A stretch of DNA of 64,000 bases. Source: Nitrososphaeria archaeon (GTDB lineage: Archaea > Thermoproteota > Nitrososphaeria > JACIWG01). Each line of letters begins with the position of its first letter. Position 1 is the stretch's first letter. The stretch spans positions 42,168-106,167 of the forward strand of contig CAVVXT010000005.1 of the NCBI GenBank assembly GCA_963752255.1, read 5' to 3'. Of the stretch, positions 46,628 through 64,000 are shown piece after piece. The notes beneath the pieces were generated by a model. It was not told the origin of the DNA. It did no database searches and worked only from the letters and a program-made list of their open reading frames with translations. The position numbers were made by a program, and so were the translations under genes.

Positions 46628-46777
46628 AAGTATCCAACGTCGCTACTAATACTTTTTAGTTACATTGTTTTTTTCATTAGTATTTATGATTTTTTTATAT
46701 CTATATTATCAGGTGGTCCAACAGCTAGGTTTAGAAGGGAATAAATGGATTGTATTGATCAAGAAGGGTAGCAAAGA

Positions 46778-48480: not shown

Positions 48481-49524
48481 GTGAATCCAGAACATCTCAA
48501 GGTCGTGCTCGGAGGATGCAGTTCTATTGCAGAATGGAAGAAAATCCATCCAGACGAGAAACTAGATCTTGCTAACGTCAAACTTCCCTCAGCTGACCTT
48601 TATGAAGCTGATCTTTCTTATGCTGATCTTTCTTACGCTTATCTTTCTCTTGCTGATCTTTCTGTTGCTAATCTTACCGATGCTAATCTTTCCCACGCTG
48701 ATCTTTCTGTTGCTAATCTTACCGATGCTAATCTTTCCCACGCTGATCTTACCGATGCTGACCTTTCTGTTGCTAATCTTTCTTATGCTAATCTTTCGCA
48801 AGCTGTCCTTAAAGGAGCATCACTTTCAGAAACTAGTCTTGTTAGGACCAGTCTGGACGACGCGAATTTTTCTGAGGCAGTAATGGATGGTGCAATCTTG
48901 GCAGGTATCAATCTAGCCAAAGCTGATGGGCTTAAGGCAATTATTCACGGTGGGCCAAGTAGTGTAGGAGTAGACACAATGATAGAGTCTTTCCGCTCCG
49001 CAGGTAATCGTTTTACACCTGAATTGGAAGCCTTCTTTCTTGGTACGGGCGTGCCGAAAGAGCTTCTTGATAGTATTCCCAAAATCATAGGCGAAGTAAA
49101 GTATTGCCCTACTTATATTGCGTATGGGCAACCAGATGTTAATTTTGCAAGGAGATTGAAGTCTGACTTAACAACGAATGATGTCTCTTGCTGGCTATAT
49201 GACACCGACAAAACAGCTGGTGAGAGAACTTGGAAGGAAATTAGACATGAAATGCAAAGGGCTGAAAAGGTGATCGTACTCTGTTCTGCTAAAGCGTTAG
49301 TTAGAGATGGTTTGCTTAAAGAGATAGAGGAGCAGATAGACAGAGATCGGGACAAGCTAATTGCTGTTTCTTTAGACGACTTGTGGAAACAAGATGGGTT
49401 CCATGTAACGAGGGGAAGCAGGAACCTGAAGCCTGACCTTATGAATAAGAACTGGGTTGACTTTATTCACAACTCGACTTATGACCATTCCCTAAATGAA
49501 TTATTAAAGGGACTAAGAAGATAA
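48481..49524 (+). CDS. Pentapeptide-repeat plus TIR-domain protein
   Basis: A(D/N)LSx repeats, then YIAYGQPDVNFARRLKSDL...VSCW...KVIVLCS...LLKEIE...LIAVSLDD (TIR_2 pattern). Confidence 0.8.
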   Translation: MNPEHLKVVLGGCSSIAEWKKIHPDEKLDLANVKLPSADLYEADLSYADLSYAYLSLADLSVANLTDANLSHADLSVANLTDANLSHADLTDADLSVANLSYANLSQAVLKGASLSETSLVRTSLDDANFSEAVMDGAILAGINLAKADGLKAIIHGGPSSVGVDTMIESFRSAGNRFTPELEAFFLGTGVPKELLDSIPKIIGEVKYCPTYIAYGQPDVNFARRLKSDLTTNDVSCWLYDTDKTAGERTWKEIRHEMQRAEKVIVLCSAKALVRDGLLKEIEEQIDRDRDKLIAVSLDDLWKQDGFHVTRGSRNLKPDLMNKNWVDFIHNSTYDHSLNELLKGLRR

Positions 49525-49962
49525 ATAGTGAACAGAGATGTTTGCATATCAGGGACTCGAACCCATTTAAGTATTAGGATTAAGAAGTTTGAATACATCA
49601 TAAATCATAATATATTTTCAAATTGTTATTTTTTAGAATGTTTTGGAATGTCGTCAGATTAAAAGAAAGAATTCGGTCATAAAGCAAACATCGTAAACTT
49701 CTCCTCGTGCATAAATTCTGAGTTTTTCTCTGTCCATAAACGATAGATTTCTTTTCCTTTTTCTTCTTGGTCCTTTGGAACCAGTCCTTTTGTGTTTTTA
49801 ACAAGCAGTAAATTGGGTGTGACAACCAACGAAGTTGTTGCGCTTGAACGATAAATGATAACCAAATAAAAACATATTTAAACTATGTTAGTTGATTAAA
49901 TCATAACGTGGTAGAATTTAATGAATGATAGTAGAGGATTTTCTTCCGCTAACCCACTTATA

Positions 49963-51424
49963 ATGACGGAAAAACCCTCAAAAGAGATTTCAGACAGAAT
50001 GAGGAAGGTCAGAAGCAAGGGAACTAAGATCGAAAAGACGACGGAACTTTTGCTAAAACAGATTTTCCTCGAATATGAAAAACAACCAAAAATGATCGGA
50101 CACCCAGACTTCATATTAAAAACCGAAAAAATCGCTATTTTTTGTGACAGCGCTTTCTGGCATGGTCGGAGAACCAAGAAACAACATTTCAAACGTAATC
50201 GGCAATTTTGGGAACATAAGATCAAAGAAAACCGATTGAGAGACAGAAGGAACAACCAGACCCTATCGAAACTAGGTTGGAATGTATTGCGTTTTTGGGA
50301 TGAGGATATTCTCAAAAAACCAAGTTACGTTACTAGAACGATATTAAGACAAGTAAGTCCCCCTCCAGAAAAACGTCTAGCCGCAGTAGAATTGTTTTGT
50401 GGGGTTGGTGGAATGGCTCATGGTTTCTTCTTAGAAGGGATTGATGTAGTTGCAGGATTCGATGTAGACAAAACTTGCAAGTATGCTTTTGAGAAAAATA
50501 ATTCTACCACATTCATAGAGAAAAACGTTAGCATGTTAGGCGGCCAAGAAATCAAAAGGTTATACCCCAAAGAATCTGTTAAAATACTTGTGGGCTGTGC
50601 ACCGTGCCAACCGTTTTCCACCTACACAAACGCGAAGAAAGGAAACTCCGATAAATGGAAACTCCTTTACGAGTTCTCTCGAATAGTAAACGAAGTCCAT
50701 CCAGACATAGTTTCAATGGAAAATGTTCCCGGACTAATCTCATACGGAAAAGGTAAATTCTTTCAGGATTTCTTAGAAAATCTTAGGCAACAAGGTTATC
50801 ATGTATGGCATCACGTCATAAATTGCCCAGAATATGGAATTCCTCAAAGAAGACGGAGACTAGTTTTGCTGGCCTCTTTATTCGGTGACATAAACATAAT
50901 CCAAAAAACACACCCTGCTGGGAAATACTCTGACAGTACGTGATGCAATCGGAGATTTAGAGCCTATATCCGCAGGAAGCTCAAGCATCAAAGACCCATT
51001 ACACAGAGCTCGAAATCTTACCCCTAAGAACATGCTTAGAATAAGGTCAACTCCCCAAGGTGGAGACTGGAGTTCTTGGCCAAAAGAATTGATGCTTGAA
51101 TGCCACAAAAAAGACAGTGGAAAATCCTTTGGCAGTGTATACGGAAGAATGAGTTGGGATGAGCTCAGTCCAACCATTACTACTGAATTTATCGGTCTTG
51201 GCAACGGCAGATTCGGTCATCCTGTGCAGGATCGTGCAATATCTCTAAGGGAAGCTGCGCTTTTACAAACTTTTCCAGTGTACTATGACTTTCTTGATCC
51301 TAATGCGGCATTCTGTTCAAGAAGAATCGCTCAGCATATAGGCAATGCAGTTCCGGTTAGGTTGGGACAAGTGATAGCGGAAAGCATTAAACAACATGTG
51401 AGGGGATTTGATGGAAAACAGTGA
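49963..51424 (+). CDS. Vsr endonuclease fused to a C5-cytosine DNA methyltransferase, frameshifted near 50928
   Basis: Vsr: PDF...IFCDSAFWHG...GWNVLRFW; MTase: ELFCGVGG, APCQ, ENV, PQRRRR, REAALLQTFP, IGNAVP. Confidence 0.85.
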
Positions 51425-53387
51425 AAAATACACACTTACGATTAGCTTGAACGTTCTTGAAAGCTTGGGTATAAACCTGTATAGTAACGTTCCAGCAGTT
51501 CTCTCAGAAGTCGTTGCAAATTCTTGGGATGCAGACGCAGAAGAAGTAAGAATAACGTTGAATACTCAACTTGGCGAAATTACCATCGAAGACAACGGAA
51601 AAGGTATGACCGCACGAGATATGAACGAAAAATATTTGAAAGTGGGTTATCACAGACGGGAATACGAAGAAACGCTTACTCCAAAACATATGCGTCACGT
51701 CTTTGGAAGAAAGGGAATAGGAAAACTTGCTTTATTTTCTATTGCAAACAAAGTGGAGGTACAAAGCGTAAAAGAAAATAACGAAGTTTTGGAAAAAAGT
51801 GGTTTCATCATGGACGCTCACGATATAGAGGAGCATATCAAACGGGAAAGTGGCCAAAACCCTGACAAAAATCGATCATCTGATTATCATCCTATTGCAG
51901 TTGATCCAGAGAAGATCACCTTTGATAAGGGAACTAAAATCATTCTGAAGGAATTGAAGAAAGAAATATTCAATCTCGGCAGCGCTTTGAAAAGAAGGTT
52001 GGCAAGACGCTTCAGTATAATAGGAGAAGAACATGATTTCGCGGTTTTCGTTGATGGTCAACAAATCACGGTAGATGATAGAGATTATTTGAAAAAGCTT
52101 CAATACATCTGGTTAATAGGCGGAGAAAATGAGGATCTTCTCAAAGATTGTAAAAACTTGATACAACATGGAAAAATTGATGGGTTAATTGACGAAAAAG
52201 AAGATTACAAAGTAACTGGATGGGTTGGCACTTTAGACGAACAAAAAAGCGTAGAAGAAGGTAGCAATACCGTCGTTGTCTATGCTTGGGGAAAACTCAT
52301 TCATGAGGATATTTTGAAAGACGTAAAAGAAGGAGGCGTGTTTTCTAAGTATCTCATTGGCGAACTTCGTGCAGACTTTCTTGATTACGATGGAAAACCA
52401 GACATCTCAACCACTGGTCGTCAAATGGTCAAGGAAGATGATGTTCGCTTTATTATACTCAAGAATTTCTTTAGGGAAAAAATTCTATCTGCAATCCATT
52501 CAAAATGGGAACCTTGGCGCAAAGAAATTGCTGTAAAAAAGGCGCTTGAAAATGAAAAAATCAAAGAATGGTTTGAAACTCTGTCGCCTGATAAGAAAAA
52601 GTTTGCTGAAACCCTTTTTGCCAAGATTGAGTCAATTCCAGTTTCTAATCCCGATAGCAAGAAGGAGCTTTACAAACACGGAATAATTGCGTTCGAAACG
52701 CTAGCTCTCAAAGATAGACTTAGCGTACTTAATGAAATTAAATCAGATAAAGAGTTCCAAGTACTTCAAACAATAATGGGTCAAATTGATTCTCTAGAAG
52801 CGATTCTTTACTCAGATATCGTAAGAGGAAGAATTACCGTTCTTACAAAATTTGCTAGTATCGCAACTAGCGAAAAAGAAAAGATAATTCAAAAATACCT
52901 ATTTGAACATTTATGGTTACTTGATTCTTCATGGGAAAGAGCTAGTACAAACCAGCGGATGGAGGAAACTTTTAAAAAGGAGTTCAAGGCTGTAAAGTTT
53001 ACAGAAGAAGAAAAGAAGGCACGGATCGATATTCGATACAAAACTGCGGCAGGAAAACATATAATAATAGAACTAAAGAAATATGATGCAAAAGTAAGTA
53101 TTTCAGTTCTTTCTAGGCAGGTACAGAAGTATAAACTCATTCTTCAAAGATGTTTGAGAAAAGTATTTTTAAATACGCAGCAACCGCCATTCGAAATAAT
53201 ATGTGTTCTCGGATCTTGCCCAACCCCTCAAGAAGATGATGAAGCTAACCGGAGGTCACTAGGCGTACATAATGCTAGATATGTTACATATGATAGTCTG
53301 ATTAATGATGCGATGGAAGGGTACAAAAGTTACCTTGATAAGGAAAAGGAAGTCGAACGGATAAGAACGCTAATAAAAGATTTATGA
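51408..53387 (+). CDS. GHKL(MORC)-ATPase plus PD-(D/E)xK nuclease, HgiDII/BbrUII-like restriction endonuclease
   Basis: EVVANSWDA, DNGKGM, GRKGIGK, RIDI...IIELK; overlaps the MTase end. Confidence 0.8.
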   Translation: MMENSEKYTLTISLNVLESLGINLYSNVPAVLSEVVANSWDADAEEVRITLNTQLGEITIEDNGKGMTARDMNEKYLKVGYHRREYEETLTPKHMRHVFGRKGIGKLALFSIANKVEVQSVKENNEVLEKSGFIMDAHDIEEHIKRESGQNPDKNRSSDYHPIAVDPEKITFDKGTKIILKELKKEIFNLGSALKRRLARRFSIIGEEHDFAVFVDGQQITVDDRDYLKKLQYIWLIGGENEDLLKDCKNLIQHGKIDGLIDEKEDYKVTGWVGTLDEQKSVEEGSNTVVVYAWGKLIHEDILKDVKEGGVFSKYLIGELRADFLDYDGKPDISTTGRQMVKEDDVRFIILKNFFREKILSAIHSKWEPWRKEIAVKKALENEKIKEWFETLSPDKKKFAETLFAKIESIPVSNPDSKKELYKHGIIAFETLALKDRLSVLNEIKSDKEFQVLQTIMGQIDSLEAILYSDIVRGRITVLTKFASIATSEKEKIIQKYLFEHLWLLDSSWERASTNQRMEETFKKEFKAVKFTEEEKKARIDIRYKTAAGKHIIIELKKYDAKVSISVLSRQVQKYKLILQRCLRKVFLNTQQPPFEIICVLGSCPTPQEDDEANRRSLGVHNARYVTYDSLINDAMEGYKSYLDKEKEVERIRTLIKDL

Positions 53388-53518
53388 TCAATAGTGAACT
53401 ATTTTAATTGGTCTTTTTGTGAGCCCTTTTATCATGGTTCCATGCACAAACTTTTCTCGGCTATAGCGCGCGTAAATCTGAAATATTTACTGGATACTTT
53501 TCACCCAATTAATTAGGA

Positions 53519-53539
53519 CGAATCCCCCCAGGCCCGCCT
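53519..53539 (+). repeat. att core (attR of element 1 and left junction of element 2)
   Basis: Exact copy of the tRNA-Lys 3' sequence 30983-31003. Confidence 0.92.
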
Positions 53540-53593
53540 ACAATTAAGTGCGAATACTTTATTTAGCAGGTATTAGATAGTAGACTTGAGGAA

Positions 53594-54907
53594 ATGCCGC
53601 ACGCTGAAAATTCAAAATACGATAGTATCTTACCTGACGTGAAATGGTGGCTTGATAACATAGAGCGCGGAAGCCCGCTCACAGCCGAAGTTGCACTCAG
53701 AAGGCTTGGAAGGGCATGCGAACTGCTACAACTTACTCCAAAGGAAATGGTTGCGCGCGCAAGAGAAGATCTTAAAACATTCCAAGACAGCCTTGAAGAC
53801 CTTGTAAGCAGACTCGAACGGGAGAATAAGGCACCCCAATATATAGCTGGAATACTCAAGAACATACGCTCATGGCTAAGATACAAGGATATTACACTTA
53901 CTCGCAAGATCAAGATTAGGAACGCCTCGTCTACGCCGACCATAGAAGACGAGCAGGTGCCATCACAAGAAGAGTTAGCGAGAATATTCAGAAATTCTTC
54001 GAGCAGAGCAAGATTAGCGGAAGCGTTGATGGCGTTCGCGGACCTAAGACCTGAATCAATTGGGAACTATAACGGTTCTGACGGACTAAAATTAGGCGAC
54101 CTACCTGAGGTGAAGATTGAAAAAGAACAAATTATGTTCGAAAAGACACCAACCATGATAGTAGTAAAATCTTCTTTGAGTAAGGCACGACATAAGTACT
54201 TCACTTTCCTGCCAACAGAAGGTTGCACCTACTTGAAAGAGTATCTTGAAGAGAGGATCAGAATAAAAGAAGAGTTAACTCCCAACAGTCCACTGATTAC
54301 ACATGAGAGAGCCGATGCTGAAACCAAGCCATTCATGCTAACGAGAAAGACAACTGAACTTATTAGGAAAGCAATGCGGAAGGCAGGTGTGCGCAAGAGA
54401 CCTTATGTTCTCAGAGCGTATGCTGAAACACAGCTGATCATCGCGGAGTCCAAAGGGAAGATTTCTCATCCCTATCTTCAATTCATTGCTGGACATAAGG
54501 GAGACATTGAAGCAAGATATTCTACGAACAAAGGTAGACTGCCACCGGACATGATCGAGGACATAAGGGAAGCGTATAGGCGATGTGAGCCGTTTCTCTC
54601 CACAGTCGCTCAACCGACAGAGCAGATGACGATAATCAAGGAAGCAAAGATCGAAGCATTAAAGAGCATAGCGAAGACGATGTTCGGAATAGACCTTCTC
54701 GAGGTGAAGGTAGCGAAGGAGAATGAAGAAAGCAGGGAGCTGACACAAGATGAAACAATCGAGCTGTTCGAGTCTGAAATGAAGAAGACGAGAGAGCAGC
54801 CTGACCCGCAGGTAATAGTTGAAGAGAAAGAGCTCGAATCCTACCTCAAAGATGGATGGCAGTTCGTCAGCGTTCTGCCGAGCCGAAGAGTCCTAATAAG
54901 AAAGTAG
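53594..54907 (+). CDS. int: Tyrosine recombinase/integrase 2 (paralog of integrase 1)
   Basis: ADLR, SDGLKLGD, KARHKY, YVLR, FIAGHKGD, ARYSTNKG; same C-terminal GW...LPS...IRK tail as integrase 1. Confidence 0.9.
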   Translation: MPHAENSKYDSILPDVKWWLDNIERGSPLTAEVALRRLGRACELLQLTPKEMVARAREDLKTFQDSLEDLVSRLERENKAPQYIAGILKNIRSWLRYKDITLTRKIKIRNASSTPTIEDEQVPSQEELARIFRNSSSRARLAEALMAFADLRPESIGNYNGSDGLKLGDLPEVKIEKEQIMFEKTPTMIVVKSSLSKARHKYFTFLPTEGCTYLKEYLEERIRIKEELTPNSPLITHERADAETKPFMLTRKTTELIRKAMRKAGVRKRPYVLRAYAETQLIIAESKGKISHPYLQFIAGHKGDIEARYSTNKGRLPPDMIEDIREAYRRCEPFLSTVAQPTEQMTIIKEAKIEALKSIAKTMFGIDLLEVKVAKENEESRELTQDETIELFESEMKKTREQPDPQVIVEEKELESYLKDGWQFVSVLPSRRVLIRK

Positions 54908-54934
54908 GTAATCTGACTTTTTTTGTTCTGTGAT

Positions 54935-55108
54935 TTGGTTAAAGAAGTAGATGTAACAAGATTGAAGGATTTTGTTCTAAAGAACCTGCCGAGGGGATCT
55001 GCTCTAAGGGAGCCGATATTGAGCGAAAGGGATACGATGGATGTGAAAACCTTCTTAGCAAAGAGTGATGTCTTGTTTAAGCTGCTCCAAATAGAATACA
55101 GCAAATAG
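54935..55108 (+). CDS. Small integrase-associated hypothetical protein
   Basis: VDVTRLKDFVLKNLPRGSALREPILSERD; follows integrase 2. Confidence 0.55.
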   Translation: MVKEVDVTRLKDFVLKNLPRGSALREPILSERDTMDVKTFLAKSDVLFKLLQIEYSK

Positions 55109-55202
55109 AACTGGCGGGATCTGGACCGAATTGGGTTTAAGTCCCTCTATCCTTTGATTAGCAGTTCTACATTATAGTGAATAACTATAAAACGTGTGAT
55201 TC

Positions 55203-55475
55203 TCACCCAGCCACGACTAAGGCTGATGCGGTAGAGGTGCTGTTGTCTTCGAAGACGGCTACAAGTGTTACCTCGTATGTTCTTCCAGCGATAATAGACA
55301 TTGCCTGATTCGACGGATTTGCCTTATATGTAAAATAGTAAATTGTCTTATTTCCCTCCGATTGAGAGTCACTGGCTTAGATTGTACCATTAATGAATAA
55401 GGTTAGTTTTGACAGTGGGGCACTTGCATTAACAAAAACCGTTGCTGAATAGGTAGACCTATTGTCTCTTTCCCT
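55203..55475 (-). pseudogene. 3' remnant of a surface/pilin-like beta-sandwich protein
   Basis: ...LFINGTI*...IIAGRTYEVTLVAVFEDNSTSTASALVVAG*; N-x-S/T sequons, internal stop, no start. Confidence 0.45.
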
Positions 55476-55580
55476 CAAAATCTTCCAATTAAACCAAAAT
55501 AACAAAAAAATAAGATGGGGAGAAGACAGCTGCCCACACCTCTTTACAAGGTTTAAGCAACTGCCTTCGACCTAAGAAAT

Positions 55581-56219
55581 CTAGGTGAAGGCGGACTCTC
55601 CTGTTGGAACGCCAGTTGGCAGCTCTGGGAACCTTTCTTTCATTCTCTGTTCCGCTACAGCTGATGCTTCTGCAAGTATCTTCTCTGCGTCTTCGTTAGC
55701 TGCCTCAAAGTTCAATGATGCCCCACTCGTTTGGCCAGCGTCAACCAGGATGCTGCTCAGTAAGCCACTGATTTCGTTTATTTCCCTTTCTGCTTCAGGT
55801 AGAACACTTATTATTCCTGATTTGACACTTCTAATCACCGACATAGCAGGAGCCAACGTCACTACAATGTCTCCGAGTTCCGTTACAGTGTTCAACCTTA
55901 GCACTATCTGCTCTAATGCAAGCCTCGAGGATGTGACCATCTTGTTCATTTTGCGAACTTCCGCAAGCTCATTAGCGTATACGCTAGCATGCTGAGTGTC
56001 ATGCTTCTGAATTGCCGTCACGACCTTGTTAAATATAACTGCGTCCCTTTCTTTTAGTTTAGTCGTAGTACCATCTAGTCTCGTAACCTGAGTCTGTATT
56101 GCGCGTATAGCATCATCTAATTTTGGCTTAAGAGGACCAGAAGGCTTCATGGCCTCTTTTACCTTGTCCCCCATACCGGGTTTTTGTTCTCTAACCCATT
56201 TTTCTCCGAAGTTAGACAT
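55581..56219 (-). CDS. cdvB: Snf7/ESCRT-III family protein (CdvB-like paralog)
   Basis: PLKPKL...ASVYANELAEVRKM...LALEQIVLRLNTVTELGDIVVTLAPA...EDAEKILAEAS. Confidence 0.88.
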   Translation of the reverse strand: MSNFGEKWVREQKPGMGDKVKEAMKPSGPLKPKLDDAIRAIQTQVTRLDGTTTKLKERDAVIFNKVVTAIQKHDTQHASVYANELAEVRKMNKMVTSSRLALEQIVLRLNTVTELGDIVVTLAPAMSVIRSVKSGIISVLPEAEREINEISGLLSSILVDAGQTSGASLNFEAANEDAEKILAEASAVAEQRMKERFPELPTGVPTGESAFT

Positions 56220-56536
56220 TTTTTACCACTGAGTCTTAAATCCATAAGATACCTCTATTATTTTCTATGTTACCGATGTAGCTGTAACTAAGGTGACAAC
56301 TGTGGCTGTGACAATGATCGGAGTGGGCGACGAAAGCATCTCCTTAGGGGGGTTTGAGTGAATAAGAGTCAGGGGTCTATGTCACCCTTTAACCGTTAAG
56401 TTTCGTGGTGGATGTCTGCTCATAGTTTTCCAGAAAGTAATGTAATAAAAGTTGCCAGCAAGTTTTCTGACGTTAAGTCGATGATAGAAGACCTTGCTGA
56501 CGTAGTGCGGTTTCGAGAAGTAAAAAGGCTCAAGTA

Positions 56537-56611
56537 CAGGCCCGGTGGTTTCTGCACCTTATTAAGTGCAGATACCTATTTTTTCGACCGTGATTAAGTG
56601 CGAATGCCTTT
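56537..56611 (+). repeat. Degenerate att-like site with two ATTAAGTG motifs
   Basis: CAGGCCCG-GTGGTTTCTGCACCTT-ATTAAGTGCAGATACC...ATTAAGTGCGAATGCCTTT. Confidence 0.55.
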
Positions 56612-56703
56612 CATTCCCTGTAGCTTAAAGGAAACATGAATAATTAGTGAATTACGGGCATTGAATAAAAGGTAAAGGTTTTTTTGAATTAATGATACCG
56701 TGA

Positions 56704-57273
56704 ATGAGATTATTGTTAACTTTTCCAACAGGACACATTAAGCCAGTTCGGACTATAACTTATTTAAAAAGCCTGCCTGAAGGCTATATTGATGGTGTAA
56801 TTTATTTGGCTAAAGATGAACATAATTCGCTTGAAGTCGTGCCGCACGTCGATTTAGAGAAATATCTGGGTAAATGGTTTGAGATTGGACACCTTCCATT
56901 TAGGTTCGAAAATGGTTGTACTGATATAACGGCGACTTATAGCTTATCGAAAGATGGCAACGTTTCCGTGCTCAATGAATGCCTAAGAGATGGCCAACTG
57001 AAACAGGCAAAAGGCAAGGCAAAAGTAGTTGATAGAAAAACTGGAGCGAAACTGAAAGTATCATTCTTCTGGCCGTTCTCTGCTGATTACTGGATTATAG
57101 ACCTGGGTAAGGAGTATGAATATGCAGTTGTAGGCACACCAAACCGCAAGTATCTCTGGATATTGAGCAGGACACCGAGGATGGACGATAAACTGTTTTT
57201 TAAGTTGCTAGAATCTGCAAAGTCAAAAGGTTTCGACGTGAAAAATCTTATCAAAACCAGTCATAAACAATAG
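56704..57273 (+). CDS. blc: Bacterial-type lipocalin (true start probably near 56806)
   Basis: VDLEKYLGKWFEI, KLKVSFFWPF, YLWILSRTP. Confidence 0.88.
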   Translation: MRLLLTFPTGHIKPVRTITYLKSLPEGYIDGVIYLAKDEHNSLEVVPHVDLEKYLGKWFEIGHLPFRFENGCTDITATYSLSKDGNVSVLNECLRDGQLKQAKGKAKVVDRKTGAKLKVSFFWPFSADYWIIDLGKEYEYAVVGTPNRKYLWILSRTPRMDDKLFFKLLESAKSKGFDVKNLIKTSHKQ

Positions 57274-57459
57274 AGAAATATGTTGAAGCAAGTAGAGTGG
57301 ATGATATGAGCGAATACGGTACCCTTATTGTTTATTCTACAGAAGGAGGAACGACAGAAAGCTCACATTATGGGGGCTCTTGAGATTTGCGGACAATAAT
57401 CAGACCCATCTGTAAATCGGTGATCTCCCAGTTATGTGGAGCAGTATTTTGGAAGAGTT

Positions 57460-59379
57460 TTATTTTGGCAGTAAAGCCCTTAGCAATTTTTCAACTCCCA
57501 GAGTTGCAACTCCAGTTACGCGGTCTGCAGCTCCATAGTACATGTATATATTGTCCCCTATCGTAACTGCGCCACAGGGGAAGACAACGTTGTTTATAAG
57601 GCCTATTTTTTCATATGCTTCTTCAGGTTCAAAGATCGGCTCATCAGTTCGTGCGATAACTTCTAGAGGATTTTTAGGGTCTAAAAGTACTGACCCAACT
57701 CTGTAGGTCGTTTCTTCGTCCACGCCATGATAAAGCAGGATCCATCCTTCCTTTGTTTTGATGGGAGGTGCGGCTATTCCGATCTTTACGCTGTCCCAAC
57801 ATCCTTTTTTTGGTATGATCCATCGATACTCTCCAATCCATGTTTTGCCATCAAACTCTAAGCTTGGGGTTAAGGCAGAATTTATATCATTGCCAATTCG
57901 GTGGATAATGAGATATTTTTCTTCACCCGTTCCAGGATCTTTAACTTTTTCTGGAAAAATGCAGGTATCCTTATCATTTAGTCCAGGTTGAGAGATTAGT
58001 ACTGGTTTTGCCCAATTCCACTTCATCTTTGAGAAATCCTCAACCTTTATCGATGTTAATGCTACTCTTGGAGGGTTTTTTGCATCAAAAGCAGTATAGC
58101 ACATGTATATCTTGTCTCCAATTATAGTCAATCTTGGATCTTCACAGCCCGAATTTCCAGGCTGCTTTTTTTGCTCAAATTCTTCACGAGGCAGGTAAAT
58201 TGGTTCTGGGCAGCGGTAATCTATATGAATTCCATCATTGCTGTATGCGTAACCTAAAACAGACGTGTTGTCTTGGGACATAGCCCTGTAAACGATGTGA
58301 ACTCTACCGTCAAGGTAAATTGCTCCAGGGTTAAAAGTTGCTTTCGATTCCCAGGAAAGCCCGGGTATTATTATCGGATTTTCCTTAGCCCTCAAAAATT
58401 TGGGCGTTTCAATTTTTCGTAAAAGTTTCTCCAGCAGCATGTTAAGATCAACGAAAGCTACGCAGCATACAGTATCAGCAGCACCATAATAAAGGTAGAC
58501 TCTATTCTTGACCTTCAAGGCTCCTGACGGAAAAACTACATTGGGTACGCTGCCCACTTTTTCGTAGTATTCCTCAGGAACAAGTAGAGGGTATTTAGTT
58601 CGAGCGATAATTTTGAGGGGTTCATTTAAATCTAAAAGGATGGCCTCCACAGTAAACAACCTGTCTTCAGTAAAATATTTGCGAATGTAGGAGTAAAACA
58701 GCAACCATCCATATTTTGTTTTAATCGGTGGAGCCCCAACTTCCATATGGTCTACTGGACTGCGTAGAAGTGGTAAGGAATGTTTTTCAAAGTTATTGTA
58801 CCATTCCCCCCAATATGATTTATCCCATACATCTTCCACCTTTTCAAAGGATACTAGACAGATGTGGGCAGGAGGTTTATCGGTATGCAGGGTCAGTACT
58901 GCCCATATCTTGTTTTTTATCCGCTCTGGAAAGAGAGCCATGGCTTTTGAGTTAAAATGCGTAACCAGATGTTTTTCCTCAATTTTGTCGAGGTCTCTGG
59001 TTATGGCCACCCCAATTTTTATATCCTCGTATGCTGGTGGATAATTTGATAATGCAGTATAGAAAATGAAGTACCTGCCATCAAAATAGGTTACACGTGG
59101 ATCTTCGCAGCCGAACGCCTCCCACTCCTTTTCAGGAACCACAAGCAACCTTCTGTCATGGAAATCCAAACCATCTTTGCTGATGGCAATGCCGATGTTG
59201 GAGACTGGCATGGATGTTTTGGTAAGTACATGGTAGTGAGATAAGGAAAGAGCACGATAAATAAGATATATTTTACCATCCTTTTTTATGGGGCAACCAT
59301 TGAAAATAGCTTGAGCTTCCCAAGAATGGATGCTTTTTGGCTTGAGAACAGGGTTCTTATCAAAGCGTTCTACCAACAT
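57460..59379 (-). CDS. Two-domain GH130 glycoside hydrolase/phosphorylase
   Basis: Two copies of FN...YRA...GCEDPR...PPIKT...NVVFP...YYGAAD. Confidence 0.85.
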   Translation of the reverse strand: MLVERFDKNPVLKPKSIHSWEAQAIFNGCPIKKDGKIYLIYRALSLSHYHVLTKTSMPVSNIGIAISKDGLDFHDRRLLVVPEKEWEAFGCEDPRVTYFDGRYFIFYTALSNYPPAYEDIKIGVAITRDLDKIEEKHLVTHFNSKAMALFPERIKNKIWAVLTLHTDKPPAHICLVSFEKVEDVWDKSYWGEWYNNFEKHSLPLLRSPVDHMEVGAPPIKTKYGWLLFYSYIRKYFTEDRLFTVEAILLDLNEPLKIIARTKYPLLVPEEYYEKVGSVPNVVFPSGALKVKNRVYLYYGAADTVCCVAFVDLNMLLEKLLRKIETPKFLRAKENPIIIPGLSWESKATFNPGAIYLDGRVHIVYRAMSQDNTSVLGYAYSNDGIHIDYRCPEPIYLPREEFEQKKQPGNSGCEDPRLTIIGDKIYMCYTAFDAKNPPRVALTSIKVEDFSKMKWNWAKPVLISQPGLNDKDTCIFPEKVKDPGTGEEKYLIIHRIGNDINSALTPSLEFDGKTWIGEYRWIIPKKGCWDSVKIGIAAPPIKTKEGWILLYHGVDEETTYRVGSVLLDPKNPLEVIARTDEPIFEPEEAYEKIGLINNVVFPCGAVTIGDNIYMYYGAADRVTGVATLGVEKLLRALLPK

Positions 59380-59394
59380 TTTCTTCTTCCCCCA

Positions 59395-60465
59395 TTAACT
59401 TTTTCTTTGTAAATTCTCCAAGAATTCATCGAGATTTGCATGAGCTATACGAACTTTTGTGTCTGCAGCACCATAGTATATTATGAGCCTGCAATTCTTA
59501 ATCACGGCACCACAAGTATAAACGATGTTTGGTTTTACACCGTCCTTAATATCCCACGGAGTCAAAATAGGCTCTTTCGCCCTGAAAAGTCTAGAGGTGG
59601 GATTATCTATATCCAATAGCATTGAGCCGATACAGTATCCAACAAAATTATCTTTGTGTAGAGCGTGATATAATACGAGCCAGCCATAATTTGTTCTTAT
59701 AGGAGGCGGCCCAACACCCTTAACCCAACCTTCCCAACCGCCTTTCCACTCGCTGCCAGGTTCGCCATGATAATAACTTTTAATGAAGTTTTCACTTTCA
59801 AATTCTAAACCGTCAAAGTAGTTGATTAAAATTTTTGGAGAGATGCTATGTAAAAGGGCATATTTTCCTCCGATTTTCTCTGGAAATAAAACCCAGTTTT
59901 TGTGAGTTTCACCACGCGGAGAAATTATCCTAATTCTTGTCTGATTCCATCTCTTGTTTAAGAAATCTTCAACTTTTATAGAGGCTAAGGCGACTCTTAA
60001 GCCATCATCACAAATTGTGTACGTTACGTAAACTGTATCCTCGATTCTTACAATTCTAGGATCCTCCACCCCACCTAAACTTCCCCCAGAGATATAGGAA
60101 TAGTAATTGGTGTGTTTGACTTTATGCTGATAAACCGGTTCGTCCAACCTTTCATCGAGATGGAAACCATCTTTACTATTAGCATAACCAAAACGTGAAA
60201 CATAATCGCCTCCAACAGCCCTATAAAGAAAATGCACCTTATCCTCTATCACAGCCGCACCGGCGTTAAAAGTTTGTAAACACTCCCATTCTAGATTTTT
60301 TCTCGGTTCAATGAAAGGTTTTTCAACTTTTTCAACTAACACGCGTCTATAAACATCCTTGTTCTCATATTCAAGTCTAATGCTCTCTTCCCTTTTCTCC
60401 TCTACTCTTTTCTTTATTTTCTCTTTTACTCTTTTCTTTATTTTCTCTTTTTTCTCAGATGGCAA
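59395..60465 (-). CDS. GH130 glycoside hydrolase/phosphorylase
   Basis: FNAGA, YRA, GVEDPR, KNWVLFPEKI, YYGAAD. Confidence 0.85.
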   Translation of the reverse strand: MPSEKKEKIKKRVKEKIKKRVEEKREESIRLEYENKDVYRRVLVEKVEKPFIEPRKNLEWECLQTFNAGAAVIEDKVHFLYRAVGGDYVSRFGYANSKDGFHLDERLDEPVYQHKVKHTNYYSYISGGSLGGVEDPRIVRIEDTVYVTYTICDDGLRVALASIKVEDFLNKRWNQTRIRIISPRGETHKNWVLFPEKIGGKYALLHSISPKILINYFDGLEFESENFIKSYYHGEPGSEWKGGWEGWVKGVGPPPIRTNYGWLVLYHALHKDNFVGYCIGSMLLDIDNPTSRLFRAKEPILTPWDIKDGVKPNIVYTCGAVIKNCRLIIYYGAADTKVRIAHANLDEFLENLQRKS

Positions 60466-60622
60466 ATTGGCTAATCAAGTAAATTCTATTCTTATTTTTA
60501 AATATTATCTTAGAATGCATAATTTAATGTTATTATATGAGTTATGCAAATATTATAGAGAAAATAGAAAAATTTGTTTGATACCAAAACCCTCTTTATA
60601 TTTCCAAATTCCTAAATTTGAT

Positions 60623-60993
60623 TTATATTAGACGAGAGACGAGGTCAACCAGTTTCTCCTTTCTCCTGTAGACTTCAGCCTCCCTGCTCTTTATCAGGGC
60701 GTTCACGAGGTCGACAAGAGGTGTGACAACCTCTCTTGTGATATAGTAGTCTATAAACTCGTGCTTTGGGGTTCGAACCGCTTCCTGCAAGCCTTCATCG
60801 TAGACGTGGATTACGTCGCCTCTGACTTCACCGTGAACCTCTCTGCTTCCATCCGGGATCCAATTACCTTGATACTGCCGTTTAGGCCCGTTAAGCTCTG
60901 AAGTCTGCTCAACTCCCTTGCGAGCTCAATTCGAATGCCCTGCTATTCCTCCCCTGTCTTTTGGACCTTAGAGAGATCCTTGGACTTTATCAT
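60623..60993 (-). pseudogene. Decayed paralog of the element-1 gene at 32484-32864
   Basis: VHGEVRGDVIHVYDE...KHEFIDYYITREV...YRRKEKLVD; one in-frame TAG and one frameshift. Confidence 0.8.
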
Positions 60994-61674
60994 TGCACAT
61001 CAACTTTGATTTGATTCTGTTCCGCATCAGCACGGCCACATTCCGCAGGGAGGAGATACTTACAAAGTGGAAGTAAATACATCTTGACTCAATACGATAC
61101 TTGAAGAAGAAATTCTAAAGGTATTTCGAAATGTCCGGGATGCATCAAGAGACCAGATTACAAAAACTGTTGAAAAAAGCGAACTGTAAAATGGGCCTAA
61201 ACCCATTTAGGTATAAGCCTCACTGACACTGCAACATCTAACCCTTGCCAATTATTGTTCGTTTAGGGACATCTTCGCATTTCAAAAAGAAAAATGAGTT
61301 CAGAAAATAGACCTTTTGTCGCGGTAGTACCATCATTCATCGGCGGCATCTTGACGCTCTTAGGTGGAGTCATATTTTCTTTCTTCAGTTTCACAGGTTT
61401 TAGTATTCTAATTGAAGAAGTTATGTAATAATTATTGGTCTACATCTTTTGGACAAATAACGTGGGCGCCTACGATCTTTACCCCAGACTTTCTGACATT
61501 CTCTTCTGAGAAGAGATTCTTGAGCATCGTTTTTCCTTCAGTTTTCTGGAGAGGGCAGCTAGAGGAAGGATGGGTGTGAACTAATATATTATCAACCTCA
61601 GATTAACAATAGCCTGGCTCAAACTTCAGGGGATCCTCAATCTTGTACTCCTTTGCAACACGTACTACTAATCT

Positions 61675-62956
61675 TCAGTTCTGATCCAGCTGCTGTTGGC
61701 TTCTGAACTTCTTCTTGATGTAACGCGACAGGAGTGGGGCTTGGATCACTATGGACAGAAACGCGACGCCGACGACCATGGTAGTTATAGTCTGGATGTC
61801 CGATTCCGACAGAAGCGCTGACCCGGCGAGCGAGGCAACCAAGGCTATCGAGAGGGCCCCTCGCATACCGCCCAGCATCGCCGTATTGCTCCACGTGATA
61901 GGGATCTTCTTTCCAAGCTGGCTAAAGAGGGCTAAGTATTGGGTAGACCGATGCCGCCCGTGCGGCTGTCACCGCCCCGTATGCGACGATGACTAGTAGA
62001 GCCGACTGCGCAAGGAAGACCACGTTCGTCTCGAAGCCTATCAGCAAGAAAGCAATGGAGTTCCCAACGAAGGCAGCGATTTCCCAGAAGGTGTTCACCG
62101 CCTCCCTCGAGGAGGCCGCCATAGCTGTCCTCATAGTAACATTTCCGAAAAATAGCCCGACCACCGCTACAGCAATCAGCCCCGAGACTCCCACGCCGGT
62201 GGCGAACACATAGGACCCGTACACGGCGGAGATCGTTAGTATCGTCTCGGCAATCTTGTCTTCCGTGAGGGAACTGATTCTCCGTGCGGCGAGAGCCACA
62301 AGGAAGCCCACAACTGCTCCGCCGAGTGTGGTGAAGCCAAAGAAGGAGATGGCTGATAATACCGGGACCTTGGTGACGCTTATGGACGAGACAACAATGC
62401 TGAATACCACGATAGCCGTTGCGTCGTTAAAGGCGGCCTCTGTGTCCATCAGCGCTGCCAGCCTCGTCGGGACGTTCGAGTGACGGAATATCTCCAGTAC
62501 GGTGACGACGTCTGTCGGCGCCACGATTGCGGCAAAGAGGAAGGAAACGGCGAAGGAGATTCCTGCAATCTTCCAGAGAACCAGTCCTCCAACGACTGTC
62601 GCGACCAGCACGCCTATTGTGGAGAGTACGATCGAAGGTCTGATCACCGCCCTAAGGTCGGTGGCTTGTACGTGCATCATCGCCTCAAATATCAGAGGGG
62701 GAACCACCAGGCCCACGAAGAGACCGCCGCTTGCGAGACCTGTGTAGAGGGTCTTCATCTGAAGAATTGTGTCCTGCAGTGCGACCGCGATGGCATTCGA
62801 GGGGGCGACGGATATGGCGGCTAGTGCCGAAACCGCCAGACCCACGAAGACCAAGACTATGGTGTATGGCACCCTCGCTTTCTTCGCCGCGATTTGCGCA
62901 GTGAGCATGACGACCAAGAATGCTGTCAGGACCAGTTCTATCGTTTGAACAGGCAT
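61675..62956 (-). CDS. CPA1/NhaP-type Na+/H+ antiporter, frameshifted near 61920
   Basis: VPPLIFEA, APTDVV, EAAFNDA, GGMRGALS. Confidence 0.85.
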
Positions 62957-63081
62957 CGAACGGCGTACTCGGCGAGCGTAATTAAGGTTTCGAGAGATAA
63001 CCCTCCACGTAAGGAGTGTAGACCCCGCGACGCTCGGCATTTGATAGAGGTTTGGGTCAGGCTATTAGTCGTAATAGAGGC

Positions 63082-63126
63082 GGGCCCGGTTGTTTCTTTC
63101 TGACCATAATTAAGTGTAGATACCTT
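63082..63126 (+). repeat. Degenerate att-like site, imperfect copy of 56538-56577
   Basis: GGGCCCGGTTGTTTCT...ACCATAATTAAGTGTAGATACCTT. Confidence 0.55.
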
Positions 63127-63169: not shown

Positions 63170-64000
63170 TTATTCTATGCTTCCTGATAGTTTCATCTCT
63201 TCGAGTCTGGACTGAATTTCAATATTGTAGACGCGTCCTATGTCTTCCCGCGTAATCAACCCTATCATCTTTTTATGGTCTAATGAATCAACTACAGGTA
63301 ATCGTCCAATCTGGTTTCCTGTCATGAGCTGGAAAGCATTATAGAGGCTTGCATTTTGTTCGATTACTACCAAATCCCTTGACATAATTTCCTCCACTTT
63401 CTTCTTTTCCCTTTGGTCAGGGTAAACTTGCAAAATGTCTGTGCGAGTAATCATGCCTATCAGATTCCCTTCGTTATCCAGGATCGGTACACCATTTATC
63501 CCTTTTTCAGCCATCATGCTCGCGACCTCTGAAAGCGGCGAATAGGGTCTGGCTGTGATGACGTTCCTGGTCATCGCATCCTTTACCAGTAGCCTCTGAA
63601 GCAAGGGGATAGAGTATTCACCCTTATGTGCTGGAGATTCAGCCCGAGAAGGAACCTGACTTTTGTATATTGTGTTCTTGCCTGTTACAATATATGCTAT
63701 TGTAGTTGCCACCATTGAGGGAACAAAAAGGGTTAGACTACCAGTCATTTCGGTGACCATCAACATGACCGCGACAGGAGCCTTCCCTACGCCTCCAAAG
63801 AAGCACATCATACCGATTATAACAAATGAAGGTAGGTTACCTTGGAAACCTGGTAAAATCGCATTAAGAATAGCCCACATCGCTGCTCCGAGCATTCCTC
63901 CTATTACTAAAGCGGGGGCAAATACTCCACCACTTCCACCGGACCCTACAGTCAACGATGTAGCAACAATCTTAAGTAGTACGATCGCTAGTAAAATAGT
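63170..64000 (-). CDS. CLC chloride channel with CBS pair, C-terminal part
   Basis: GSGGSGGVFAP, EMTG, two CBS domains. Confidence 0.9.
   Translation of the reverse strand, partial: TILLAIVLLKIVATSLTVGSGGSGGVFAPALVIGGMLGAAMWAILNAILPGFQGNLPSFVIIGMMCFFGGVGKAPVAVMLMVTEMTGSLTLFVPSMVATTIAYIVTGKNTIYKSQVPSRAESPAHKGEYSIPLLQRLLVKDAMTRNVITARPYSPLSEVASMMAEKGINGVPILDNEGNLIGMITRTDILQVYPDQREKKKVEEIMSRDLVVIEQNASLYNAFQLMTGNQIGRLPVVDSLDHKKMIGLITREDIGRVYNIEIQSRLEEMKLSGSIE

Follow-up and report, generated by a model that had tools for sequence, protein, structure and literature searches.

The window analysed here is a 64-kb stretch from the 2.1-Mb genome (G000) of a peat-soil archaeon, in which a single tRNA gene is accompanied by integrase genes, accessory genes and copies of a short motif, arranged as follows.

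30927..31002, + strand: tRNA-Lys(UUU), target of the array and sole tRNA of the window (ARAGORN)
30983..31025, + strand: attL of element E1, a 21-bp identity block (30983-31003) and the E1 right-hand arm TAATTATTAAGGGTTTATTAAC
31004..53518, + strand: E1, a 22.5-kb integrated element (direct repeat; comparison with the congener G001)
31059..32459, + strand: integrase 1, tyrosine recombinase family (38% identical to integrase 2; PHROG 1 integrase, E 1.3e-08)
53502..53557, + strand: tandem junction, attR of E1 and attL of element E2 (sequence; same arm after intact tRNA-Arg elsewhere)
53558..53565, + strand: TATA-like box TTTATTTA, putative promoter, 29-36 nt upstream of the integrase 2 ATG (sequence)
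53594..54907, + strand: integrase 2, tyrosine recombinase of a large archaeal family
55581..56219, - strand: CdvB1/B2-like gene (CdvB1/B2 match, E 2.5e-60)
56539..56577, - strand: attR-type junction including a near-palindrome; arm GGTATCTGCACTTAAT, T-arm-like AAGGTGCAGAAA, tRNA-Arg-like core CCACCGGGCCTG
56579..56609, - strand: second junction unit, truncated to arm and T-arm-like part, without tRNA core
56632..57383, + strand: lipocalin (Blc-like) block with sharp borders, 98% identical to G001:C18
57460..60465, - strand: two GH130 genes (confirmed; no counterpart found in G001-G004)
60623..60835, - strand: relic of the small gene that follows integrase 1 in E1
61675..63040, - strand: NhaP antiporter, split by a frameshift, 56.6% GC
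63080..63126, - strand: attR-type junction; arm GGTATCTACACTTAAT, T-arm-like part, tRNA-Arg-like core AACCGGGCCCGC
63170..64000, - strand: CLC channel gene, truncated where the contig ends; it occupies the element-body side of the 63080 junction

Allowing one mismatch, the motif ATTAAGTGYRRATRC was found four times in the window, only on the + strand (53543, 56561, 56593 and 63109), against 0.13 copies expected by chance, and none of 100 shuffles reached four, which bears out the recurrence in one orientation described by the first-pass annotation. The imperfect repeat of about 40 bp that it had noticed at 56539 and 63080 was recovered as part of a family of about 45 bp, and its near-palindrome is real as well, since positions 56530-56585 fold as single-stranded DNA at -8.5 kcal/mol (z -3.57; 0/200 shuffles as good), with an inverted arm at 56547-56562. 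Two motif copies are perfect or near-perfect palindromes, and hairpins formed at two of the six sites tested. All the gene contents that had been named for the intervening blocks were found, namely the integrase 2 fold, cdvB, lipocalin, both GH130 genes, NhaP, CLC and the element relic. The CdvB1/B2-like gene is a duplicate of a chromosomal copy (C19:206371-207006; 95% amino acid identity), the DNA of the NhaP antiporter is foreign, as judged from its GC content, and the element relic is 72% identical between 60729-60835 and 32590-32696.

E1 is a classic tRNA island, with integrase 1 adjoining the tRNA gene and 21 bp of the tRNA-Lys 3' end (CGAATCCCCCCAGGCCCGCCT) repeated exactly and in the same direction at 30983-31003 and 53519-53539. 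Its cargo includes restriction-modification genes, a TIR-pentapeptide protein and glycosyltransferases; the 22.5 kb at this position compare with 1.1 kb in G001, whose own tRNA-Lys has kept 43 nt of the E1 right-hand arm downstream. The hexamer GGCCCG, which had been read as the end of the tRNA acceptor stem at three loci, lies at 53531-53536, 56539-56544 and 63083-63088. Since a 19-mer of the tRNA-Lys end with up to three mismatches matches just twice in the window (0.01 expected), only the first of these sites truly copies the tRNA-Lys end; the other two derive from tRNA-Arg, on the antisense strand.

The junction following E1 consists of the E1 left-hand arm (53502-53518), the 21-bp tRNA-Lys copy (53519-53539), TACA and the integrase 2-type arm ATTAAGTGCGAATAC (53543-53557). 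Positions 53519-53557 are thus a true junction that closes the 22.5-kb E1 and is continued by the left arm and the putative promoter of integrase 2; an arm with a TATA-like box likewise stands upstream of integrase homologues. The order tRNA-Lys, E1, 21-bp copy and integrase 2 element corresponds in G001 to tRNA-Lys, a short remnant, a Lys relic and an integrase 2-type arm, and at least two elements are stacked behind tRNA-Lys. E2 has no attR of its own within the window. Integrase 2 gave no match in Pfam; it is nonetheless a tyrosine recombinase, as its top PDB fold matches all belong to this class (XerA, Brujita Int, IntI, XerH, Cre and lambda Int) and R152, K197, R274, H301 and Y309 are invariant across 17 sequences.

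The target of this integrase could be read from other loci. In four of six metagenome loci the arm directly follows an intact tRNA-Arg gene (anticodons tcg, gcg, cct and tct), with an integrase 2 homologue next, and in the remaining two a tRNA-Arg relic precedes the arm, as a tRNA-Arg 3' relic also does at G000 C1:8805 and G001 C1:39696. A profile built from 16 motif copies gave weak matches to the antisense strand of five tRNA-Arg genes, and three motif flanks run into sequence resembling the downstream flanks of tRNA-Arg (63 nt, 95%; 50 nt, 88%; 49 nt, 88%). The normal target is accordingly tRNA-Arg; tRNA-Lys, with which it has the acceptor end GGCCCGCC in common, is used too.

At 56539 and 63080 the GC-rich half is the reverse complement of the tRNA-Arg 3' end, which identifies both as attR-type junctions of a polarity opposite to that of the tRNA-Lys array; on the opposite strand, they read as the element arm GGTATCTGCACTTAAT joined to the tRNA-Arg 3' end. 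Breaks at these junctions were observed in other populations. Matches of metagenome contigs from runs X2 and X4 (two studies) end at 56548/9, where tRNA core and arm meet, with unlike sequence beyond, and one X6 contig stops matching at 56577/8; contigs from other metagenomes begin to match at 56581-56583, and one X4 contig carries a different relic before 56583. On the body side of the two sites no tRNA-Arg is found up to the contig end at 64000, where the remainder of the CLC gene is unassembled. The T-arm-like stretch is no less similar to the inverted arm than to a tRNA T-arm, and as an alternative to the core, strand exchange might take place in the central TAATTA, two copies being palindromic or nearly so.

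The first-pass annotation had taken the sites as integrase junctions that record repeated capture behind one tRNA. Integrase junctions and the stacking of at least two elements stand; the single tRNA does not, given the opposite polarity and tRNA-Arg origin of 56539 and 63080. A chain of same-sense sites behind tRNA-Lys, filled by integrase 2 through stepwise cargo capture as an integron or a simple tandem array, would account for the common orientation of the four copies, for the truly tandem first junction and for blocks that differ from the congener (lipocalin DNA lies elsewhere in G001, and GH130, NhaP and CLC were not found there); in G001, too, a same-sense dispersed copy comes 13 kb after an attL-type site. 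Inner junctions of such a chain, however, should show left arm, sense core and right arm, as 53502-53557 does, whereas the cores at 56539 and 63080 are Arg-type and run antisense; in the one well-delimited element, on G001 C1, the far junction points the opposite way, the blocks span 3-6.5 kb with several genes in mixed orientation, and hairpins are few. We consider this chain quite unlikely. As for its integron form, no integron feature is present: a tyrosine recombinase, repeated sites between accessory genes and one hairpin-forming site recall IntI, attI and attC, but the sites here are tRNA-end relics with element arms rather than attC, and the attI/Pc arrangement is missing.

Across genomes, the motif family comprises 16 copies in G000, nine in the congener and two in a family-level relative, being present in three of 31 related genomes and not found in the other 28 searched. 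Four of the 16 copies lie in the window; the others are spread outside this locus, and only two of the 16 adjoin an integrase. Genome-wide scatter had been named as an outcome that would speak against junctions; the scatter exists, but the scattered copies are att junctions and not promoter or regulator sites. Eight of the 13 attR-type copies in G000 have an Arg-type core, one a Lys-type and one a Met-like core; a correctly oriented tRNA-Arg lies within 40 kb of only one of the 13 (C14, 1.8 kb off), with no integrase 2-type arm after that tRNA. An element end of 523 bp recurs at two G000 sites with 99.2% identity and has a counterpart in another genus at 97.7%, and together with the patchy distribution this fits a mobile element.

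Two further readings were weighed. That the motif is the operator of a dimeric transcription factor with BRE/TATA, governing accessory transport and stress genes, agrees with the arm immediately upstream of the integrase 2 TATA-like box, an AT-rich stretch after about half of the other copies, the two palindromic copies and frequent ion or metal transporters as neighbours. It is very improbable, because neighbouring genes are inconsistent in orientation and distance (63080 lies between two - strand genes), the motif was not found in 28 of the 31 relatives, and it invariably occurs joined to a tRNA-end relic, with synteny broken where the two meet. A role as terminal inverted repeat of a transposon or MITE, suggested by a short, dispersed, lineage-specific repeat and by one inverted pair around the ars region (C19:73085/77263), is scarcely credible: target-site duplications and an associated transposase are absent, the inverted pair has a Lys-type tRNA relic on one flank and an Arg-type relic on the other, further pairs stand in direct orientation at distances of 3.7-6.5 kb, and neither an Rfam match nor another sign of a compact unit was obtained.

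Presence and absence of whole elements against the congener point to integration. G001 C1:39.54-70.11 kb is a 30.6-kb insertion where G000 C10 has 173 nt; an attL-type site with an integrase 2 homologue marks its left border and an attR-type site of reversed orientation its right border, and the empty site in G000 reads GGGTTCAAATCCCACCGGACCCGC with the same flank. An arsenic-resistance element is homologous from the arm inward at G000 C19:73085 and G001 C11:117383; the relic to which it is joined is Lys-type in one genome and Arg-type in the other, no similarity persists past the relic, and the element has thus used different targets. The Lys-type attR at C19:73085 adjoins DNA that follows the tRNA-Lys array in G001, which suggests a rearrangement between elements.

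Synteny breaks against G001, expected earlier to fall exactly at the sites, do so at the relic/arm fusion points, but the majority of block borders are tens to hundreds of bases away. This bears on the possibility, which we regard as unlikely, that attR-type relics are still-active docking sites where integrases acting in trans add, remove and exchange gene-sized modules that lack an integrase, likened to bacterial CIME accretion-mobilisation and amounting to an archaeal analogue of cassette exchange. At G000 C6:24363, a site that abuts backbone in G001 C13, a 2.9-kb block of VIT1 and TnpB lies precisely against the relic side; the 30-kb G001 element sits in a relic and not in an intact tRNA, surrounding islands are mosaics whose blocks match DNA across other G001 contigs at 92-98% identity, and contig breaks coincide with unit borders. 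Yet 23 nt separate the start of the lipocalin block from the junction unit, no circular or attP forms were seen in metagenome or viral contigs, the C6 insertion could come from a TnpB/IS605 element, and decay with homologous recombination among many related elements accounts for the mosaics even if their relics are inactive.

The motif is thus probably the conserved terminal arm of lineage-specific integrative elements, whose integrase 2-type tyrosine integrase recombines with tRNA gene 3' ends. The attP would read GGTATCTGCACYTAAT - TA - KGGTCRGAAACCACC - GGCCCGCC - TAYA - ATTAAGTGCGAATAC - TATA box - int, a tRNA-like core between two inverted arms of 15-16 nt (ATTAAGTGC) that the integrase would bind, with strand exchange presumably within or beside CCACCGG/GGCCCGC. 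This form, with both arms around the core, had no matches in metagenome contigs and chance matches only in viral contigs. Integration would yield an attL of tRNA end, ATTAAGTGCGAATAC and int, as at 53519-53557, and an attR of GGTATCTGCACTTAAT, T-arm-like stretch, tRNA 3' core and flank (GCGGGCCCGGTGGTTTCTGACCMTAATTAAGTGCAGATACC on the opposite strand), as at 56539 and 63080. In the window, the tRNA-Lys accretion array (E1, then the older E2) would abut two junctions facing the opposite way, brought together by a rearrangement, whose elements would have lost their integrases and had their DNA remodelled. Several observations count against this explanation: the attP form that was looked for and not found, the lack of a tRNA-Arg on the body side of 56539 and 63080, the single attR-type copy of 13 with a correctly oriented tRNA-Arg nearby, the likeness of the T-arm-like stretch to the inverted arm, the missing attR of E2, and the E1-like relic at 60623-60835, oriented as in a + strand element.

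The ICE/CIME arrays of Streptococcus thermophilus grow as integrative elements, and derivatives of them that lack an integrase, accrete in tandem. There, as here, newcomers enter a regenerated target or the att site of a resident element and older elements without integrase retain their att sites; unlike them, the present locus has an archaeal integrase family, no conjugation genes and two oppositely facing junctions, and mobilisation of its integrase-less blocks is only putative. The integrated elements of Thaumarchaeota insert mostly at tRNA 3' ends; their att sites are short, they form tandem arrays and they lose integrases (PMC6563490; PMC8371274). The cryptic integrated elements share with ours a tyrosine integrase adjoining the tRNA, integration at the 3'-distal tRNA part, a short att identity (21 bp in E1; median 17 bp in theirs) and restriction-modification, transport and metabolic cargo, but ours are mostly decayed to single junctions and carry one arm family in 16 copies in a 2.1-Mb genome (Krupovic et al. 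2019, PMC6563490); inverted 15-nt arms around the core are not described in the passages of that article consulted here. Thermococcales show chromosomal inversions between oppositely oriented integrated elements (TKV2/TKV3, pTN3 integrase), alike in having related elements at several tRNA genes and in the inter-element rearrangement suggested by the C19:73085 context, although the inversion here is deduced from fragmentary assemblies and the integrase family differs (PMC8371274).

In brief, the repeated ATTAAGTG sites are worn junctions of tyrosine-integrase elements inserted at tRNA gene ends in a peat-soil archaeon; the building of genomic islands by tRNA-end insertion is familiar, and the scars left here are unusually many and scattered.

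The four same-strand copies of ATTAAGTGYRRATRC singled out by the first-pass annotation (starts 53543, 56561, 56593 and 63109, all on the + strand of the window) are a real feature, ordinary in kind. Their number was borne out, since 0.13 copies were expected by chance and none of 100 shuffles reached four; GGCCCG lies upstream of three of them. The source genome, G000, comprises 2.1 Mb in 19 contigs (~41% GC), and the final base of the window is the end of contig C5. Across the whole of G000, the degenerate 15-mer gave 11 exact matches and 18 with at most one mismatch, from which C2:27156 and C4:18859 were removed, the remainder of the repeat being absent there. The 16 retained copies have a common ~45-bp unit (gcGGGCCCGGTGGTTTCTGACCmTAATTAAGTGCAGATACCta), in which column conservation is 0.8-0.99 from TAGGTATC to the end of CCACCGG, drops across GCCCGC and is at background level in both flanks. 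Four of the 16 fall in the 9.6-kb region under study, and an integrase adjoins only two, C5:95710 (window 53543) and C1:8805, in which the left half differs, being a tRNA 3' end in sense orientation. Regarding the proposal that the motif marks integrase junctions behind one tRNA, the genome-wide scan gave a divided answer: the copies are scattered and mostly lack an integrase neighbor, yet the scattered copies are themselves relics of junctions.

A single tRNA, tRNA-Lys(UUU) (30927-31002), is present in the window. An exact 21-bp repeat, CGAATCCCCCCAGGCCCGCCT, which is the 3' end of this gene plus one base, occurs again at 53519-53539, and because of this repeat at the far border, 31004-53518 was recognized as a 22.5-kb integrated element, E1. 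Its integrase gene, int1, adjoins tRNA-Lys inside the element, and thus an integrase beside the tRNA and a 3'-end direct repeat at the far border, as in a tRNA-targeting island, are both present. The cargo of E1 includes:

BbrUII/HgiDII-type restriction enzyme (719 bits, above the curated cut-off)
C5 methylase fused to Vsr
N6 methylase, 793 aa
Glycosyltransferases
48466-49524, pentapeptide-repeat protein with a C-terminal TIR domain (ThsB-like match)

The TIR-pentapeptide gene may be a defense gene, since restriction-modification genes surround it. Its repeats are also visible in the DNA, as 13 copies with a 15-nt period (48551-48835).

The far junction of E1 reads CACCCAATTAAT-TAGGA-CGAATCCCCCCAGGCCCGCC, and directly after the second 21-bp repeat follow TACA, the 15-mer, a TATA-like box and int2, the integrase gene of the next element (E2). 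Because of this order, 53502-53557 was read as a tandem junction, in which E1 arm, Lys core and int2-type arm give the inner-junction layout of an accretion array; no attR of E2 itself was found in the window. In the congener G001, 1.1 kb occupies the place of the 22.5-kb E1, and the locus runs tRNA-Lys, 43 nt of E1-type arm, 1.1 kb and CAGGCCCGCC-TATA-ATTAAGTGGGAATAT, with the integrase absent. The order is the same as in G000, and the int2-type junction behind tRNA-Lys is thus older than E1. After its array, G001 continues with backbone DNA that is located in G000 at C19:71605-64238. A Lys-type attR (C19:73085) sits 1.45 kb from this backbone, across an unmatched stretch, which suggests that G000 has been rearranged within the old tRNA-Lys array.

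The two integrases are clear homologues (38% identity, E 1e-100). Besides the pair on C5, full-length copies in G000 lie on C1 (89% identical to int2) and on C19 after tRNA-Arg(tcg), which makes four, and integrase fragments follow tRNA-Asn and tRNA-Cys. For int2, no Pfam family (E <= 0.01), NCBIfam family or PDB sequence match (E <= 1) was obtained, and the match to PHROG 1 'integrase' was weak (E 0.0031, against 1.3e-08 for int1). Judged by its AlphaFold model (mean pLDDT 76.9, built on 17 sequences), int2 is a member of the tyrosine recombinase superfamily, with a predicted two-domain fold of the Xer/Cre/lambda Int type. The model had 14 PDB matches at E <= 0.001, and among the matches listed all were tyrosine recombinases, including XerA (4a8e, 1.9e-05), Brujita Int, IntI (2a3v), XerH and Cre; TM-scores on the query were low (0.27-0.36), partly because of an extra C-terminal region. 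Residues R152, K197, Y271, R274, H301 and Y309 are invariant among the 17 sequences. By order and local motifs, R152, K197, R274, H301 and Y309 would be the catalytic residues, with Y271 at the first His position.

The int2 family is very large, with at least 1680 proteins at E <= 1e-5, among them proteins named 'site-specific integrase' in Nitrososphaeria, Methanoperedens and Bathyarchaeota records, and with matches in 50 of 201 genomes of the class (G131 among these). A search for the int2 locus in genome contigs returned only the congener. ARAGORN-called tRNA ends lie just upstream of the integrase in 8 of 30 loci examined. Several distant homologues (L064, L068, L072-L075, L078-L080) have no tRNA beside them; their aligned part is immediately preceded by conserved sequence, …GATGAGGACTGC…GTCTGAT(G/A)TGGGAAAAAA…, which may represent a different attachment arrangement.

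Two types of site are distinguished below: attL type (tRNA end, int2-type arm, integrase) and attR type (arm, T-arm-like stretch, tRNA 3' core, flank). On the opposite strand, the dispersed unit reads GGTATCTGCACTTAAT-TA-GGGTCAGAAACCACCGGGCCCGC followed by flank, and the six ARAGORN-called tRNA-Arg genes have near-identical ends, GTGGGTTCAAATCCCACCGGGCCCGC. This likeness is considered real for several reasons. A nhmmer profile built from the 16 motif copies gave matches in G000, weak in themselves (E 0.1-0.3), to the antisense strand of five tRNA-Arg genes. Furthermore, flanks of the units resemble sequences downstream of tRNA-Arg genes (C19:77263 with C12:265578-265640, 63 nt, 95%; C12:205718 with C7:62147-62196, 50 nt, 88%; C17:43607 with C14:142831-142879, 49 nt, 88%), and the layout is the same as at the E1 far junction. 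That the GC-rich half is a tRNA 5' end or a split-tRNA half was considered and dropped, since the flanks match antisense tRNA-Arg downstream regions. Among the 13 attR-type copies of G000, the core is of Arg type in eight, Lys type in one (C19:73085), Met-like in one and partial or absent in three; in 12 of the 13, no suitably placed tRNA was found.

Metagenome contigs point to the same target. A 24-nt query taken from the int2-type arm with its TATA box had six exact matches, of which four show an intact tRNA-Arg (tcg, gcg, cct, tct), GCC-TAYA, the arm and then an int2 homologue; the remaining two have a tRNA-Arg relic before the arm and another arm type before the relic. The att architecture that we infer from these sequences consists of a tRNA-Arg/Lys core flanked by two 15-nt arms in inverted orientation. 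Before the int2 copy on C1, a tRNA-Arg-like sequence (C1:8820-8900, - strand) has D-arm-like and T-arm parts, no anticodon arm and no ARAGORN call; it would be a relic or, alternatively, an unusual gene with an intron.

Comparison with the congener provides an occupied and an empty site. Synteny between G001 C1 and G000 C10 holds up to 39536/49287 and resumes from 70109/49460, with 30.6 kb in G001 where G000 has 173 nt. A tRNA-Arg relic, TATA and ATTAAGTGCGAATAC open the insert, with an int2 homologue next, and its end, on the same strand, is GGTATCTGCACCTAATTATGGTCGAAAACCACCGGACCCGC and then ACCCAATTC..., a far border with an Arg relic; the empty site in G000 reads GGGTTCAAATCCCACCGGACCCGC, followed by the same flank as in G001. 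Strand exchange would take place within or next to CCACCGG, because of an A/G difference in GG(A/G)CCC and differences in the T-loop between the two loci. An exchange in the central TAATTA, which could draw on the fact that the T-arm-like stretch resembles the inverted arm as closely as it does a tRNA T-arm, is less consistent with this empty site.

The first-pass annotation anticipated that blocks would be gained or lost in relatives exactly at these sites, and presence/absence polymorphism at att borders was indeed seen for the G001 C1 insert, for E1 and for an arsenic resistance (ars) element. The ars block (ACR3, ArsR, ArsC) is homologous between G000 C19 and G001 C11 inward from the arm. 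In one genome it joins CGGGCCTGGGGA (Lys-type), in the other CGGGCCCGGTGG (Arg-type); past these joints no similarity remains, and in G001 the block sits at another relic. In G000 it lies as follows:

C19:73085-77302 (L007 5086-9303), ars block including DUF5714, between two inverted attR-type sites with Lys-type and Arg-type relics

The other motif copies lie in variable islands. The 2.4 kb that separate tRNA-Arg(gcg) from the backbone on C14, with an attR-type site at the end, differ between G000 and G001. On C6, a 2.9-kb VIT1 and TnpB block lies exactly on the relic side, and the equivalent site in G001 C13 abuts backbone. At C19:402-413 kb, a 6.3-kb island is composed of blocks like five other G001 contigs (88-96%), and for C17 nothing of the arm side was found in G001. 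A 523-bp element end is 99.2% identical between C12:205693-206215 and C19:76780-77302, and 97.7% identical in G003 (L018 1477-2000), a family-level relative of a different genus. Its 53-aa ORF, a truncated gene, has a methyltransferase-like motif, DPPF. Each of several ordinary genes of G000 (VIT1, Nramp, IF-2B family, ABC-2 permease) is broken into a pair of neighboring ORFs (C6:24724-25275/24470-24781, C19:320891-322097, C12:202077-203020, C1:10072-10837), and the frameshifts may be sequence errors of the assembly.

At least 29 tRNA 3'-end relics occur in G000 outside called tRNA genes; some of these relics could be intron-bearing tRNAs that escaped calling. In front of many lies another recurrent arm (TAATTTACTGGTAAATTA, CTACTGGTAGATTAATGC or GACTTAAACC), giving at least three further families of arm and relic junctions, in which the relics are of Arg, Glu, Leu, Ala and Met tRNAs:

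C19:50207, C19:148777, C7:38270, C19:35969, C12:265643, C19:181745 and C19:490075, examples of the further junction families in G000

Since several arm families recur, the ATTAAGTG arm is one among several such families.

In this context, the two remaining sites of the window, 56539 and 63080, are of opposite polarity to E1 and E2, with the element body to the right and the target flank to the left, and the earlier view that all sites face one tRNA was therefore abandoned. If these sites are of attR type, a tRNA-Arg would be expected beyond the contig end. The features between int2 and the contig end are:

55581-56219 (-), CdvB1/B2-like ESCRT-III cell-division gene, inside the island between int2 and 56539
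56539-56577, junction
56579-56609, second, truncated unit
56632-57383, lipocalin block, its left border 23 nt past the unit
60623-60835, E1-like relic, in orientation opposite to that expected of a - strand element
61675-63040, NhaP, split by a frameshift (61675-61878 and 61922-63040), abutting the tRNA-relic side of the 63080 junction

For 56539 and 63080 themselves, the evidence of polymorphism consists of contig breaks in other metagenomes only, and the anticipated gain or loss holds here to that extent. The comparison used matches at least 90% alike, with contigs as data, from 12 public runs each containing less than 0.2 of the sampled words; the GH130 genes and most of NhaP lack cover in these runs, which are uninformative there. 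Contigs from two studies (runs X2 and X4) leave the match at 56548/9, exactly at the GGCCCGGTGG / TTTCTGCACC border, and continue with unlike sequence; one from run X6 leaves at 56577/8, and others enter at 56581-56583, one with ...GAGTTCGGTGGTC ahead.

The lipocalin block matches G001 C18 at 98% identity; the match has sharp borders, and its flanks differ. Searches of G001-G004 gave no match to the GH130 genes, NhaP or CLC. With 56.6% GC in surroundings of ~40%, NhaP looks like a recent foreign gene. No continuation of the CLC gene past the contig end was found, and the whole assembly has one Voltage_CLC match. The cdvB gene lies in an 886-bp copy (55456-56392) of the cdvB1/B2 locus at C19:206289-207180 (90% nucleotide and 95% amino acid identity); this chromosomal locus adjoins a second paralogue.

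An integron-like array was also proposed for this region. The near-palindrome at 56551-56572 was confirmed, as single-stranded DNA of 56530-56585 folds better than shuffles (z -3.57), and so does C19:323921 (z -4.2). The other four of the six sites, including 63075-63135 and 53515-53570, do not (z +0.66 to +1.61). In integrons, every cassette has an attC, a palindrome that folds as single-stranded DNA, whereas the hairpin here is confined to the two palindromic copies; integron cassettes are mostly promoterless single genes in one orientation behind an intI/attI/Pc head, whereas the blocks here hold two to six genes on both strands and the head site is a tRNA end. The integron reading was therefore discarded in favor of element arms.

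Two further explanations were rejected. A regulator site, for which a scattered motif would be ordinary, is opposed by neighboring genes without fixed orientation and by the distribution of the motif (18-mer, <=2 mismatches), which is present in three of 31 related genomes (14 copies in G000, nine in G001 and two in G003, whose assembly is 68% complete; a reversed control pattern gives 0-1 per genome) and was not found in the other 28 examined. For a MITE or IS transposon, the sole inverted pair is 4.2 kb apart with unlike flanks, the other pairs are direct repeats, and target-site duplications are absent. Rfam at gathering thresholds returned only two tRNAs in nine loci and no family at any motif copy, and in window 53000-64000, at E <= 1, a single chance snoRNA match. 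The attP form had no match in metagenome contigs; in viral contigs 98 stretches fit a loose pattern, and these are attributed to chance, since the 80 fetched all lack both an int2 homologue and a tRNA core. A circular form of the element was not found in viral or metagenome contigs.

A bolder reading, which we consider improbable, is that tRNA-end relics with an arm serve as reusable docking sites, where a few resident integrases act in trans on ~16 sites and move integrase-less cargo modules between islands and genera. If true, gene-sized modules (arsenic resistance, Mn/Fe transport, lipocalin, NhaP) would be exchanged in an archaeal, tRNA-relic-based counterpart of cassette exchange, and the palindromic copies, where arm and inverted arm lie opposite each other across TAATTA, would be preferred substrates. 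Bacterial CIME elements, with their accretion-mobilization, would be the parallel.

The probable reading of the sites as decayed junctions of tRNA-Arg-targeting, int2-type elements agrees with published descriptions. Among thaumarchaeal elements, 39 of 68 lie in tRNA genes, in the 3' part in all but one, att sites have a median length of 17 bp, and arrays arise through site re-use, with metabolic and stress genes in the cargo (Krupovic et al., 2019, PMC6563490), in whose main text 'CdvB' and 'ESCRT' are absent. A review (PMC8371274) also describes elements integrated in tandem, integrase genes that have been lost, and inversions between elements of opposite orientation.

In brief, our data constitute a useful annotation result overall, not a new mechanism: an att architecture worked out for a very large archaeal integrase family without a Pfam match, and, in arm plus tRNA-end relic, a simple sequence rule for the borders of integrase-less islands in related genomes. 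Decayed junctions of such elements are where a large part of the flexible genome of this peat-soil lineage is located, including genes for As, Mn, Fe and Na transport, glycoside phosphorylases and even a CdvB copy.
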